From positions 93,427 through 152,868 of the forward strand of contig JBBAAI010000001.1 in the NCBI GenBank assembly GCA_041658325.1: 59,442 bases of DNA, given 5' to 3'. This stretch comes from Minisyncoccota bacterium (GTDB lineage: Bacteria > Patescibacteriota > Minisyncoccia > Phycocordibacterales > UBA9973). The stretch's first letter is position 1; every line of letters starts with the position of its first letter. The translations under genes were made by a program, and so were the position numbers. Below are positions 24,944-27,692 of this stretch, piece by piece. Under the pieces are notes generated by a model. It saw only the letters and a program-made list of their open reading frames with translations. It did no database searches and was not told the DNA's origin.

Positions 24944-25528
24944 ATGAAAAATGAAATTGAAGCAACGTTTCTTTCAGTGAATAAAGATTCTGTGCGAACA
25001 AAGTTAAAAGAAGCTGGTTTTGAGTTAAAAACACCTGAATACATGATGAGGAGAAAAACGTTTGATTTTTCTCCTATCGCACCTGGACGCAGTAAATGGG
25101 GTCGCGTACGACAAGAATCGGACAAAATAACAATGACTGTTAAAGAAGTTCGTGGTTTAGGTATTAATGATACTTATGAAACTGAAATCGTAGTAAATGA
25201 TTTTGATGCAGCATCTGCTCTTTTTGAAGCTTGTGGTTTTCCCGCAAAAGCATTTCAAGAAAATATGCGCGAGGTGTGGACACGGGAAGAAGTTGAAGTA
25301 ACTATCGACACGTGGCCTAGCTTAAAACCGTTTGTTGAAATTGAGGGAGAAAATGAAGATATCGTAAAAAAAGTGTCTGAAGAACTCGGTTTTGATTTCG
25401 ATAAAGCAGTTTTTGGAAGTATCGATCTCGTATATGAAAAAGAACTTGGTGTTTCTGCAAAAACAATTATTAATTTGCCAGAAATAACATTTACAAATCC
25501 ACCAAAAAAAAACGTCACGGAAGCTTGA
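24944..25528 (+). CDS. CYTH-domain protein (triphosphate tunnel metalloenzyme family), divergent
   Basis: N-terminal EIEATF (ExExT rather than ExExK). Alternating beta-strand pattern and length are typical of CYTH/CyaB-like proteins. Confidence 0.55.
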   Translation: MKNEIEATFLSVNKDSVRTKLKEAGFELKTPEYMMRRKTFDFSPIAPGRSKWGRVRQESDKITMTVKEVRGLGINDTYETEIVVNDFDAASALFEACGFPAKAFQENMREVWTREEVEVTIDTWPSLKPFVEIEGENEDIVKKVSEELGFDFDKAVFGSIDLVYEKELGVSAKTIINLPEITFTNPPKKNVTEA

Positions 25529-25547
25529 AAGCTATCAACGTGACGTT
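25511..25547. terminator. Hairpin aacgtcacg...cgtgacgtt between the convergent CYTH gene and the radical-SAM gene
   Basis: 9-bp perfect stem with a 19-nt loop. It spans the TGA of the CYTH gene and ends 3 nt before the stop of the radical-SAM gene. Confidence 0.45.
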
Positions 25548-25550
25548 AGA

Positions 25551-26561
25551 TTACTTCATGATAAGAAGTGTTGGACGAATCTTCGGGTAAAGATACTCAC
25601 CCGGTTCTTCCATACACCATCCCTCTGTCGCACCGGGCACCCTGCAGTTGAAATTGCAGTACGGTGTCACAGTAAGACGCAGCGGGGTTTTAGCGAGAAG
25701 CTTCTCAATATTAGCTTCTCCAATTACTTCTTTGAGCTTCTGTTTCAGCTCCTTCGGCCGACCGAAGTACTCCGAGACATGGAACCCAATGTCTCTGCGC
25801 ATGTAGCAGAAATACAAATGAAGCCGCGGATCAACTCGCACATAGTCACCGAACGCCTCTTTGCAAACATGCTTGAAAGAACACGAAGCGCAAGGCTGGT
25901 TACCACGGTAGAGCTTATCACCAAGCTTCACCTCGACCGATCCGCCTCCCAGGAGGTGAAACTTTAGACGGCCACGACCGAGATTCTTCCGCACGCGCTC
26001 AATCTTGAGTGTGTGCGGAAGTACTGCATCACGTACAGGCTGGTGCCAGTCCTGATAATATGCCGTGCGTGTGGCAACACTTTTGGGCGTCCACAATAGT
26101 GTAAACAATTTGAGCCGACTATTGTAGCGCTCGATGAATGCCAACTGTTCAGGCAAATCATCTGTAAATCCCCGCATGAGTACGCGGTTGAAAGCCACCT
26201 TAATGCCTAACTCCAATGCAAGTGTTACACCACGAAGGAAACGATCGTAATCTCCAAAACCACCAGAGATCTCGCGGAACATAAGTGGGTTTGTTGAGTG
26301 CCAACTGGTTCGAATGAGAGAGAGACCAGCACGATCTAGATTCCCAGCGAAGATGTCTAGCAATTGTCCGTTCGTGGTCATAGAAACCTTGAAGTCACGA
26401 ATGGTCAGTGCACTAACGACGTCATGAATGCGGTAAGGTCCATCGTTCCAAAGAAGTGGTTCAAGCGCACCAATTTCTGCCTCTAGCGCACCACCCATGT
26501 CACGCCAGACATCAGCCATGGCAATGATATGCGCATAAGAGAGTGGTTTGAGGTTGTTCAT
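25551..26561 (-). CDS. MoaA-like radical-SAM-fold protein, apparently circularly permuted (cluster motif at the C-terminus)
   Basis: The N-terminus aligns to MoaA after its Cys motif (GALEPLLW ~ GGEPLLR, SMTTNGQLL ~ TTNG, AGLSLIRTS, GIKVAFNRVLMRG). An auxiliary-cluster-like PCASC...RVDPRLHLYFC is present. The last 45 aa read PLRLTVTPYCNFNCRVPGATEGWCMEEPGEY, compared with MoaA LRLSITDVCNFRCTYCLP. Confidence 0.65.
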   Translation of the reverse strand: MNNLKPLSYAHIIAMADVWRDMGGALEAEIGALEPLLWNDGPYRIHDVVSALTIRDFKVSMTTNGQLLDIFAGNLDRAGLSLIRTSWHSTNPLMFREISGGFGDYDRFLRGVTLALELGIKVAFNRVLMRGFTDDLPEQLAFIERYNSRLKLFTLLWTPKSVATRTAYYQDWHQPVRDAVLPHTLKIERVRKNLGRGRLKFHLLGGGSVEVKLGDKLYRGNQPCASCSFKHVCKEAFGDYVRVDPRLHLYFCYMRRDIGFHVSEYFGRPKELKQKLKEVIGEANIEKLLAKTPLRLTVTPYCNFNCRVPGATEGWCMEEPGEYLYPKIRPTLLIMK

Positions 26562-27124
26562 ACCCCCCCCTTTCCTTCTACAATGTTTCTGACGGTGGCA
26601 ACAACCTCTTCAACAGTAACATCACTCGTGTCGACGGAGATAAGACCAAGAGTCCGAAAAACTTCGTTGACCTGATCGAGAAACGCACCATTGCGCTCCA
26701 AGGTTGCGTCACTTGTGATCGTTGCACGTTTTGCCATGCGATCCTTGCGCACATCCGAACGTGCTTCGAGTAAGAACGCGAAGTGCGGAATCAGTAGCGT
26801 CGACTCTTCGTGAATCTCGCGGATGCGCGGGTCCATTGCGAAGTGGTAAGCCGCCGTGGATGCGATATACCGATCGCATATCACCGAAGTGGTCTGTAAT
26901 AGTTGGGATATCTGTGCTGAGTCATGTTGCGAGGCTAATCGGTAGAAGCAGTAGCGTTCGAGCGGTGTAGCGTGTAGGTCAACTTCACTTCGTAACTGCG
27001 CGAACATGCCAGAGGGCGACTTGTGATAGTGATATCCGCAGTCGGTGGCAAATAATTTTGCCACCGTTGTCTTTCCCACGCCATCGACCCCATCGATACT
27101 AATAAAAACGTGTTTTGATTTCAT
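26558..27124 (-). CDS. Thymidylate-kinase-family nucleotide kinase
   Basis: P-loop FISIDGVDGVGKTT and DRYIASTAAYH (the DRY..S..AY motif of dTMP kinase-like enzymes). The start was placed at ATG 27124, preceded by AAGGAGG. The stop overlaps the radical-SAM ATG (ATGA). Confidence 0.7.
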   Translation of the reverse strand: MKSKHVFISIDGVDGVGKTTVAKLFATDCGYHYHKSPSGMFAQLRSEVDLHATPLERYCFYRLASQHDSAQISQLLQTTSVICDRYIASTAAYHFAMDPRIREIHEESTLLIPHFAFLLEARSDVRKDRMAKRATITSDATLERNGAFLDQVNEVFRTLGLISVDTSDVTVEEVVATVRNIVEGKGGV

Positions 27125-27135
27125 TTCAACCTCCT

Positions 27136-27618
27136 TCAAGTTACCGAAACGACATTAAACCTTTTTGTTGTCTCTTGGATTTTGACTTCCACTTCGTCGC
27201 CTGCAACAGTGCCGATAAACGCACGGGCCATAGGCGCACCAATGCTAAGAGTGCTGATTTTTTCTCCATCCACTTCGTAGGTATCTCCACCACCTACTGG
27301 TAGCAAGAAATACTTTGACCTTACTCCATCATCAAGGTTTTCAACCTCGACGATGGCACAACTAGAACCCTTGGTGGTGGTTGGCAGATGATCCATGAAG
27401 CGCTTAAGTGCACCCAATGCTTGCCGGGTTTCAAAAAGTGATTGTTCTATCGCTTCAGCACGTCGGCTCATCTGCCATTTTGTTGTGTCGCTGTGCGATT
27501 GCATAGCCCCAGGAGCTTCTATCGCCGCCTGCTTGGTTGTTTCAAGACTCTGTTTAGTGCTTTTTTCCCTTTGCGTGAGCATTTCAACAACAAGCTGTAA
27601 GAGCTTTTGTTTGTTCAT
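27136..27618 (-). CDS. GreA/GreB/Rnk-like protein (coiled-coil N-terminus plus Gre-factor C-terminal domain)
   Basis: The C-terminal STLSIGAPMARAFIGTVAGDEVEVK matches the S..AP.G.AL.G...GD signature of Gre/Rnk C-domains. The N-terminal ~80 aa are helical but lack the canonical acidic DxxEN tip. AGGAGG lies 5 nt upstream of the ATG. Confidence 0.6.
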   Translation of the reverse strand: MNKQKLLQLVVEMLTQREKSTKQSLETTKQAAIEAPGAMQSHSDTTKWQMSRRAEAIEQSLFETRQALGALKRFMDHLPTTTKGSSCAIVEVENLDDGVRSKYFLLPVGGGDTYEVDGEKISTLSIGAPMARAFIGTVAGDEVEVKIQETTKRFNVVSVT

Positions 27619-27663
27619 TTTTTCCTCCTATTCAATTGTGAAAGGGCCTGTTTTCCGCTATTT

Positions 27664-27692
27664 ATTTTAAATTACTTTAATCGTTTTGTCAA
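27664..27692 (-). promoter_or_regulatory. Canonical sigma70-type promoter for the GC-rich operon: TTGACA, 17-nt spacer, TAAAAT
   Basis: Minus strand reads TTGACA (27692-27687), aaacgattaaagtaatt, TAAAAT (27669-27664). A ~45-nt leader containing AGGAGG follows. Confidence 0.55.

Follow-up and report, generated by a model that had tools for sequence, protein, structure and literature searches.

A mobile four-gene module joining a Gre-fold factor to nucleotide enzymes and a circularly permuted radical SAM protein in candidate phyla radiation bacteria

Why would a protein resembling the factors that bind the secondary channel of RNA polymerase be encoded in an operon with a nucleotide kinase and an enzyme of the radical S-adenosylmethionine (SAM) type? 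The question is raised by a short GC-rich block in the window, the 59,442-nucleotide (nt) stretch of contig JBBAAI010000001.1 from a Minisyncoccota bacterium that was analysed here. The bacterium belongs to the candidate phyla radiation (CPR), whose members are uncultured episymbionts with tiny genomes. The block is part of a mobile four-gene module: the gene set recurs, it is conserved as a unit, the radical SAM core is circularly permuted, and each of the four proteins keeps the hallmark residues of its fold. The genes and their main motifs, in coordinates of the window, are the following.

27136 to 27618, minus strand: Gre-family factor of 160 amino acids (PF01272, GreA_GreB C-domain, 31.5 bits against a cut-off of 26.9, over residues 88-160)
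27478 to 27510, minus strand: coiled-coil tip motif G-A-M-x-S-x-x-D-T-x-K of the Gre-like factor, residues 37-47, invariant across the family
26558 to 27124, minus strand: nucleotide kinase of the dTMP kinase family, 188 amino acids from its ATG (PF02223, 55.3 bits against 27, E = 8.8e-15)
25551 to 26561, minus strand: circularly permuted MoaA-like radical SAM enzyme of 336 amino acids (Radical_SAM Pfam, 48.8 bits against 29.5)
25806 to 25892, minus strand: putative auxiliary-cluster cysteines C224, C227, C233 and C252 of the radical SAM enzyme (CX2CX5C...C), invariant or nearly so
25614 to 25658, minus strand: C-terminal cluster motif C302-NFN-C306-x9-C316 of the radical SAM enzyme (CX3CX9C, with a Trp before the last Cys)
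24944 to 25528, plus strand: CYTH (CyaB-like triphosphate tunnel) protein of 194 amino acids, convergent with the other three genes (PF01928, 24.9 bits against 23.2)

The mean GC content of the window is about 36%, and 500-nt windows on both flanks of the block have 28-36%, whereas four consecutive ones in 25501-27500 have 47-51%. This block is filled by three minus-strand open reading frames (ORFs), which encode the Gre-like factor, the kinase and the radical SAM enzyme (gene GC 0.466, 0.504 and 0.495, respectively). At third codon positions their GC content (GC3) is 0.43, 0.53 and 0.51, compared with 0.29 +/- 0.05 in the other 50 long ORFs. A preliminary description of this DNA had pointed to a GC-rich operon of three tightly coupled genes, and these values bear it out. 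The kinase stop and the radical SAM start share the letters ATGA as it had said, and a Shine-Dalgarno (SD) sequence, AGGAGG, directly follows the TGA of the Gre-like gene; the gap between the Gre-like and kinase genes is 11 nt and not the 12 nt given before. The trio is thus real, but the GC island does not mark the boundary of the unit, as the AT-rich CYTH gene next to it is a fourth member.

The CYTH gene looks native because its GC content is low (0.36, with a GC3 of 0.22) and it has no SD sequence. It is the fourth gene of the module all the same. Orthologues with 48-67% identity adjoin the radical SAM gene on three unrelated contigs (L003, L005 and L007), and a survey with hidden Markov models found the gene in most complete loci, in the order Gre-like > kinase > radical SAM < CYTH; some 40 independent loci have it next to the trio. 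Identity to the window copies co-varies across loci with that of the radical SAM protein, both for the kinase (r = 0.91) and for the CYTH protein (r = 0.88, n = 40). The nearest relative, locus L123, encodes a radical SAM protein 87% identical to that of the window, lies between other flanking genes and displays the same GC split (0.50 in the radical SAM gene and 0.37 in the CYTH gene). The possibility that the CYTH gene is a mere native neighbour was rejected on the strength of this co-evolution and of L123. Five aligned CYTH sequences share invariant residues E4, E6, R54, R56, K67, E79, E81, R109, D122, E132 and E134, so that the N-terminal E-x-E and the conserved Arg, Lys, Glu and Asp tunnel residues of CyaB and the triphosphate tunnel metalloenzymes are all present. 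The window protein is nevertheless a divergent member, scoring 32.5 bits on TIGR00318 (cyaB) against a cut-off of 57.95 and carrying a family-specific C-terminal extension of about 45 residues. Between L123 and the window, nucleotide identity is 81-82% for the radical SAM and CYTH genes, 71% for the Gre-like gene and 65% for the kinase gene, a comparison suggestive of a recombination breakpoint within the module.

The sharp GC steps that bound the block could also arise from a chimeric assembly in which DNA of another organism was joined to the contig, and the junction on the Gre-like side, beside a GNAT gene, was not replicated in other assemblies. This explanation is scarcely credible here. 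The AT-rich CYTH gene that adjoins the block co-evolves with the GC-rich genes, the same GC split is found in L123 and in many other assemblies, and the GC-rich operon has a terminator that reaches into the end of the AT-rich CYTH gene. Moreover, the order of a histidine kinase gene followed by the CYTH gene recurs in L009, L045 and L055. Since L123 has the same split at like identity but other flanks, the GC step at 25.53 kb lies inside the module.

How widespread is the module? Among 185,579 GTDB species-representative genomes, 31 loci were found, about 20 of them with the full order Gre-like > kinase > radical SAM < CYTH. The hosts are mostly Patescibacteria (Paceibacterota, Kerfeld-, Adler-, Doudna- and Peribacteria), with a few Acidobacteria, Verrucomicrobiota and Gemmatimonadota and one metagenome-assembled genome labelled Gammaproteobacteria. 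In the non-CPR hosts of the first three phyla, the order is kinase > radical SAM > Gre-like and the CYTH gene is missing. A search of metagenomes from the Gre-like side returned 79 loci: 40 carry the permuted module, in five the contig stops after the kinase, nine hold variant modules, six have only a nearby CYTH gene, seven are solitary and 12 could not be classified. The trio does co-occur, which the preliminary description had proposed to check: dozens of independent genomes and metagenomes have it with the gene order unchanged.

The base composition of the module disagrees with that of its flanks in both directions, as four loci illustrate.

Window: module GC 0.47-0.50, flank GC 0.36
L021: module GC 0.50-0.52, flank GC 0.42
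L018: module GC 0.46-0.50, flank GC 0.61
L005: module GC 0.36-0.40, flank GC 0.56

The module is horizontally mobile, mosaic and sometimes decayed. The suspected horizontal acquisition is upheld by this two-way discordance and by the spread across phyla. An identical radical SAM protein (P0002) occurs on contigs with differing neighbour genes, and large serine recombinases make up 4 of 120 flanking proteins. No convincing direct or inverted repeats were found flanking the module, and the nearest tRNA gene is 10 kb away. A phage origin was considered and rejected, as IMG/VR holds no relative of the radical SAM enzyme or of the Gre-like protein. Broken or remnant copies were found in L012, L034, L035, L036, L039 and L124, which indicates that the module is frequently lost. 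In some loci the radical SAM gene is split or only its C-terminal part remains, and in some the CYTH gene is fragmented; the pattern extends to L078, L105, L107 and L115, and some loci keep only the Gre-like and CYTH genes.

Related versions of the module have also been found. A sister module encodes a Gre-like protein whose tip is the same, a related kinase, a MoaA-like enzyme that is not permuted (N-terminal CX3CX2C) and a CyaB-type CYTH protein; L108 and L122 show it most clearly, in this order, and L100 and L119 are arranged otherwise. In L042/L043, only a Gre-like gene stands before a distant permuted radical SAM gene (P0262), and the two overlap by 4 nt. A Gre-like protein and a MoaA-like radical SAM enzyme are thus paired in three enzyme lineages, those of the sister module, the P0262 pair and the permuted module.

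The radical SAM enzyme raises a question of its own, that of a cluster motif missing from the N-terminus. Its Radical_SAM Pfam match begins at profile position 28, which corresponds to its own residue 7, and its first cysteine is residue 224. The cluster motif was found at residues 302-316 of 336, in the C-terminal segment LRLTVTPYC302NFNC306RVPGATEGWC316, and the strand LRLTV that precedes it carries R295, the equivalent of MoaA R17. Across 74 sequences C302 and C316 are invariant and C306 is at least 90% conserved, while R295 is invariant in 20 sequences (alignment A1) and at least 90% conserved in 74 (A4). HMMER aligned residues 292-307 with MoaA 15-30 and residues 4-155 with MoaA 48-197. 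When residues 285-336 were moved to the front, the un-permuted construct became collinear with Pfam positions 2-161 and MoaA 16-176, with a 7-residue insertion before the third Cys. The AlphaFold2 (AF2) model has a predicted local distance difference test score (pLDDT) of 91.1 and a predicted template modelling (TM) score of 0.91. Its top Foldseek match is MoaA (7e-11, TM score about 0.6), followed by AbmM, BlsE, DesII, PqqE and viperins, and the MoaA profile match has E = 7e-16. Judged from these alignments and the model, the radical SAM core is circularly permuted, with the first barrel strand and the cluster motif at the C-terminus. The new chain ends lie between the cluster loop and helix 1, with the old ends joined by a helical linker (269-291). 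All 74 aligned homologues (47-88% identity, about 335 amino acids) share this arrangement. A mis-called start or a lost N-terminal extension was rejected as the cause of the missing motif, because the ATG overlaps the kinase stop and at least 74 homologues start alike. The earlier naming of the enzyme as MoaA-like holds for its nearest relative, but it had been overlooked that the core is permuted and the motif a non-canonical CX3CX9C at the C-terminus.

The permutation extends well beyond the module. A profile search of 1.84 billion representative proteins returned about 30 collinear permuted representatives. Several distant permuted proteins (P0257, P0258, P0260, P0262 and P0279) carry a canonical CX3CX2C motif at the C-terminus, while non-permuted relatives (P0254-P0256, P0259, P0263, P0264 and others) carry the expanded motif at the N-terminus. 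Among 45 sequences (the window protein, 39 representatives from the profile search and five sister-module enzymes), the motif is only C-terminal in 25 and only N-terminal in 20. In a neighbour-joining tree of the core, a rough one without support values, all the permuted proteins group in a single clade, whose sister is the non-permuted group that has the expanded loop. For every protein of this tree the MoaA models give the highest score and viperin the next; none attains a MoaA cut-off. The clade that conserves the permutation comprises more than 150 protein clusters, and in some members the loop is expanded to CX3CX8-13C. The permutation appears to have arisen once and now to define the whole clade. 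The C-terminal position and the expanded loop mean that the motif can escape the usual N-terminal pattern searches. A permuted core with a C-terminal cluster strand and loop is also a natural experiment in fold assembly and active-site gating. Looked up as an exact sequence, the radical SAM protein of the window gave no record. Among its relatives, P0258 (L127) is encoded with an inositol-phosphatase-like gene, an AIRS-family gene, a DegT aminotransferase gene and a nucleotidyltransferase gene in a cluster of nucleotide-sugar type, and the non-permuted P0259 (L040) is encoded between a PfkB kinase and a 188-residue unknown protein.

Is the enzyme then a MoaA in another order? In MoaA, the free iron of an auxiliary [4Fe-4S] cluster held by three cysteines binds GTP. 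The window enzyme shares with MoaA the GGE-like and TTNG motifs and, at equivalent positions, three auxiliary cysteines (C224, C227 and C252), and its fourth cysteine, C233, is also invariant. The same pattern is found in the non-permuted sister enzymes, where it aligns with the auxiliary cluster region of MoaA. Of the arginines, R295 aligns with MoaA R17 and R242 with R268, and R266 has no clear counterpart (Staphylococcus aureus MoaA numbering). In the MoaA R17A structure 2fb2, the counterpart of R295 is the residue that has been changed to Ala. These residue assignments rest on alignments to Protein Data Bank entries. MoaA (1tv7 and 2fb2) has an N-terminal CX3CX2C motif, whereas the window enzyme is permuted, has an expanded cluster loop and a fourth auxiliary Cys, and lacks the C-terminal Gly-Gly tail.

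The nearness to MoaA leads to a metabolic explanation, namely that the genes serve ordinary biosynthesis or salvage (a pterin of molybdenum cofactor (Moco) type, a deazapurine-like cofactor or a nucleoside natural product) and that the Gre-like protein is merely a co-transcribed transcription factor. The best family matches are to MoaA, some relatives lie in sugar-nucleotide or kinase clusters, and the flanks are mostly housekeeping genes, all of which agrees with it. However, the enzyme scores 74.8, 54.1 and 58.8 bits on the MoaA equivalog models TIGR02668, TIGR02666 and NF001199, whose cut-offs are 325, 284 and 231, and the un-permuted construct, at 76.6 bits on the MoaA model, stays under them as well (75-77 bits against 231-325). 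The gene lists of the loci contain none of the Moco genes moaC, moaB, moaD/E and moeA, and no MoaC, MoaB, MoaD/E or Que gene is among the 25 commonest Pfam families of 120 neighbours. A Moco or queuosine pathway, which the preliminary description had named as the finding that would overturn its view, was rejected on the low MoaA scores and the missing partner genes. Occurrence in 31 of 185,579 species genomes, patchy spread across phyla, pseudogenes, and retention of the Gre-like partner in three different radical SAM lineages and arrangements also speak against ordinary metabolism, which we regard as very unlikely.

A closer parallel was found in the viperin systems. The kinase retains an intact P-loop (GVDGVGKTT) and DRY motif (CDRYIAST). 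Its assignment to the thymidylate kinase family stands at the PF02223 score listed above, while on TIGR00041, the housekeeping Tmk model, it reaches 57.9 bits, below the cut-off of 83.25. Against the PADLOC models it matched PDC-M51B over its full length (2.3e-25) and VakA (4.4e-17), so that the tie to viperin-associated kinases drawn earlier was supported for this protein. The kinases of the sister module also match component B of PDC-M51, whereas the other module proteins match no PDC-M51 model; a literature description of PDC-M51 component A was looked for and none was found. The radical SAM enzyme is itself not a viperin, a membership that was rejected on 11.9 bits on NF038283 (cut-off 180) and a PADLOC pVip match of 1.2e-3. 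Like pVip with VakA and vertebrate viperin with CMPK2, the module sets a nucleoside monophosphate (NMP) kinase beside a radical SAM enzyme from the nucleotide-acting MoaA/viperin group; both have a sporadic, horizontally transferred distribution, and in both RNA polymerase is the expected target of the product. Prokaryotic viperins make a 3'-deoxy-3',4'-didehydro-nucleoside triphosphate (NTP) and protect against phage. The window enzyme differs from viperin in its nearness to MoaA, its permutation, its CX3CX9C motif and its four auxiliary cysteines. To our knowledge, viperin systems have no Gre-like or CYTH partner. The module is a novel form of the nucleotide systems built on a radical SAM enzyme and a kinase, and no described system was found to match it. 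As had been supposed, the literature search, which did not cover all journals, gave no paper on this gene combination; it found no description of a circularly permuted radical SAM enzyme either.

What does the Gre-like factor add? The preliminary description had recognised a Gre/Rnk-like protein, and profile, AF2 model and Foldseek agree that it has a full-length Gre fold. The family profile matches GreA (1grj) at 1.5e-5 and Gfh1 over residues 19-158. The model (pLDDT 88.9) has helices at 3-34 and 44-76, a hairpin of two 32-residue helices, followed by a beta domain. The best Foldseek matches are Gfh1, GreA, GreB, HelD-N and Rnk, all of them secondary-channel binders, and the full-length alignments to Gfh1, GreA and GreB span 154-168 columns; the matched structures of these three include copies bound to RNA polymerase. 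The coiled coil is predicted to be long enough to reach the polymerase active site. The protein is like the Gre factors in its 160-residue length, N-terminal antiparallel coiled coil and C-terminal Gre domain, but it has no match to the Gre N-terminal Pfam domain, and its gene shares an operon with nucleotide enzymes.

The tip of the coiled coil sets the family apart. Where GreA/B have an acidic D-x-x-E and Gfh1 has an acidic cluster, it carries GAMxSxxDTxK, in the window GAMQSHSDTTK. Residues G37, A38, M39, S41, D44, T45 and K47 are invariant in 49 Gre-like sequences, and D44 is the only invariant acidic residue. The motif is kept in the Gre-like partner of the distant permuted radical SAM enzyme (EAPGRMQTRYDS), and the loop is predicted to be flexible (pLDDT below 50 at residues 40-42). 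The Gre-like protein as a whole diverges faster than the module enzymes (identity correlation r = 0.70). Two N-terminal subtypes have been recombined with the same C-domain, and the exchange of N- and C-terminal halves between lineages is a further difference from Gre factors. Three Gre-like paralogues lie on one 134-kb contig (L001/L002, 4930-5418 and 7141-7620; L099 is also concerned). The window protein itself combines the N-terminal tip type of one lineage with the C-domain of another (alignments A3 and A5), which indicates that paralogues recombine with each other.

These observations can be joined into a proposal for function. The reading that we prefer, which could well be right and could equally be wrong, is nucleotide-mediated arrest of transcription in a conflict, whether anti-phage or inter-bacterial, with the Gre-like protein as polymerase adaptor or immunity component. 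The kinase would phosphorylate an NMP, whether modified or not, to a di- or triphosphate. An NTP would be altered in its ribose or base by the radical SAM enzyme through 5'-deoxyadenosyl radical chemistry, and the CYTH enzyme would hydrolyse or cyclise a triphosphate. The Gre-like coiled coil would enter the secondary channel of RNA polymerase, which is the entry path of NTPs, and the invariant tip GAMxSxxDTxK would either position the product at the active site or protect or rescue the cell's own polymerase. An NTP-like substrate is suggested because MoaA, viperin and AbmM are known for radical chemistry on nucleotides and the counterparts of the MoaA arginines, R295 and R242, are kept. The kinase probably feeds or recycles the substrate, since viperin-associated kinases supply substrate nucleotides, and entry into the secondary channel is expected because the protein has a Gre fold.

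If true, this proposal would extend the viperin principle, in which nucleotide analogues made by radical SAM enzymes are aimed at polymerases, by a lineage derived from MoaA. It would give such chemistry two new partners, a secondary-channel factor and a triphosphate-tunnel enzyme, and it would lead one to ask in what way a cell's own RNA polymerase is targeted or shielded by that cell. A mobile four-gene cassette in CPR bacteria points to otherwise hidden selection from phage, host or competitor.

Several observations weigh against transcription arrest in conflict. The Gre-like tip lacks the D-x-x-E acidic pair (D41 and E44 in GreA) of cleavage-active Gre factors, and a role in rescue by cleavage is not supported by the tip sequence. 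Seven solitary Gre-like paralogues, with at least 2.5 kb on both sides, have the same tip, so that the tip need not be specific to the product of the module. The fourth auxiliary Cys suggests a fully ligated second cluster, and the substrate could therefore differ from that of MoaA. The placement of the C-terminal motif in the fold is read from alignments and summary data of the model. In PADLOC-DB 2.0 only the kinase matches convincingly (PDC-M51B and VakA); the radical SAM enzyme has the weak pVip match, and the Gre-like and CYTH proteins have no convincing match there. The 120 flanking proteins are mostly housekeeping, and no defence-island enrichment was seen among them, a point that the preliminary description had proposed to survey; matches to defence models were few, with single cases of Csx1/CARF-HEPN, HEC-06 and PycTM. 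CPR genomes may lack typical defence islands. The lack of copies on viral contigs, which might be counted here too, is uninformative on defence. The only clear defence-type neighbour was seen in L006, a locus of the non-CPR type (kinase > radical SAM > Gre-like), where the next gene (2175-2750) has a PycTM domain, that of the Pycsar effector (E = 1.5e-11).

A more specific claim joins two parts. In it, a nucleotide made by the radical SAM enzyme acts on RNA polymerase only with a dedicated Gre-fold factor, whose tip would bind the nucleotide or position it within the active site, in the manner of guanosine tetraphosphate (ppGpp) and DksA with chemistry of MoaA type, and the permuted radical SAM core would be the first natural one found and have arisen once. 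DksA is a functional analogue of the Gre-family secondary-channel factors. This conjunction is possible but rather doubtful as a whole.

The invariant and flexible tip loop allows yet another interpretation, that the loop itself is the substrate of the radical SAM enzyme, assisted by the kinase and the CYTH protein, and that its modification gives a specialised channel factor. The tips of EF-P and EF2 are modified comparably. The pairing of Gre-like protein and radical SAM enzyme is the most persistent link among these genes and survives without kinase and CYTH in L042/L043, and the new chain termini beside the cluster loop have been speculated to open the active site to a macromolecule. On the other hand, the closest characterised relatives of the enzyme all act on nucleotides or nucleotide-linked sugars, the counterparts of the substrate arginines of MoaA are conserved, the dTMP kinase and CYTH folds belong to enzymes of small-molecule phosphates, and the solitary Gre-like paralogues keep the tip with no adjacent enzymes. 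Protein modification is accordingly quite unlikely, in our estimate, if somewhat less so than ordinary metabolism.

Could the nucleotide be a signal rather than a weapon? This alternative ranks as the main rival of transcription arrest in conflict, although it too is unlikely. In it, the radical SAM and CYTH enzymes would make a modified, possibly cyclic, nucleotide messenger, the Gre-like protein would be its receptor or effector on the polymerase, and a histidine kinase would provide the input, for control of growth or dormancy. The candidate input gene in the window is the following.

23241 to 24839, plus strand: seven-transmembrane (7TM) histidine kinase, directly upstream of the CYTH gene (HATPase_c 1.3e-22, HisKA_7TM 1.7e-6)

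In about nine distinct loci a homologue of this gene is no more than 120 nt away from the module, in one of two arrangements, upstream of the CYTH gene or upstream of the trio. The gene thus recurs as a neighbour, and it is uncertain whether it belongs to the module. Parallels for such a pathway exist in MoaA followed by MoaC, in class IV cyclases and in DksA with ppGpp. The sister-module CYTH protein passes the cut-off of the class IV adenylate cyclase model TIGR00318 (86.3 bits against 57.95), with the window protein a divergent relative at 32.5, and the position of the sister-module gene within the same operon fits a pathway enzyme. The Gre-like protein has no enzymatic domain, and a leader hairpin that sequesters the SD sequence suggests regulated expression. 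Yet a catalytic messenger needs no NMP kinase, and the kinase fits bulk supply as in viperin systems. The non-CPR versions and the P0262 pair have no CYTH gene, the histidine kinase is missing from most loci and no response regulator was seen. The sporadic distribution, decay and mosaicism are also more typical of conflict systems than of signalling.

The expression signals of the module are listed below.

27664 to 27692, minus strand: promoter-like site TTGACA-17-TAAAAT, matching 11 of 12 consensus positions and the best site in 24800-27900
27624 to 27646, minus strand: leader box CCCTTTCACAA and SD sequence AGGAGG of the Gre-like gene; UCCUUU pairs with the SD sequence in relatives
25504 to 25547, minus strand: intrinsic-terminator-like hairpin (25547 to 25511) followed by U9 (RNAfold -15.7 kcal/mol, z = -2.3)

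The promoter proposed earlier for the operon is thereby borne out as the best in its region, where promoter-like sites total six against 4.9 expected, no more than by chance. The hairpin said to follow the last gene was likewise found; it lies 3' of the radical SAM gene, where part of its sequence also serves as the final codons of the convergent CYTH gene. An automatic terminator scan had passed over it owing to its long loop. The SD sites of the Gre-like, kinase and radical SAM genes are AGGAGG, AAGGAGG and GAAAGGGGGG, respectively. Such strong sites had been reported as missing from native genes, and the motif is indeed absent from 48 of the 50 other long ORFs, with even the 4-nt SD core in just two of the 50. 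Many of these 50 ORFs have a TATAAT-like box 5-10 nt 5' of the ATG. This suggests that leaderless or SD-independent translation is widespread in this organism, the three module genes being a clear exception.

The leader of the Gre-like gene was compared between the window (27621-27692, minus strand) and loci L013, L021, L044, L048, L052, L053, L057, L060, L064, L065, L001 and L084. The box TTCACA does not vary among the six closest leaders, and it recurs in most of about 45 loci. In the leaders of relatives, both RNAalifold and RNAfold pair UCCUUU with AGGAGG; the window's own leader folds weakly (z = -0.18). The upstream promoter-like box of related loci, CTTTACAAA...GATATGTTAT, differs from that of the window. 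Many related loci have this box first, then a hairpin of 10-12 bp and then the invariant box YCCTTTCACAAC, whose UCCUUU is able to pair with AGGAGG. The arms of the upstream hairpin vary between loci yet remain complementary. RNAalifold on a plain MAFFT alignment of the leaders missed this hairpin, as the stems were out of register, while single-sequence folds show it. An Rfam scan of the window gave four tRNAs only and no match in the leader. The window leader retains the box alone, with the near-consensus promoter at the place of the first hairpin.

The remaining neighbours lie on both sides of the module. Beside its promoter are a GNAT acetyltransferase gene (27750-28340) and a canonical CyaB-type CYTH gene (28337-28879). 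The latter scores 87.8 bits on TIGR00318, above the cut-off, and the window thus has two CYTH genes within 4 kb. This pair (27750-28879) was rejected as part of the module, as it does not recur at other loci. Upstream of the histidine kinase, the region 19566-23236 encodes a ThiF-like E1 protein, a 495-residue protein without a Pfam match and a nitroreductase-like protein, a set that recurs near the module in L007, L010 and L011.

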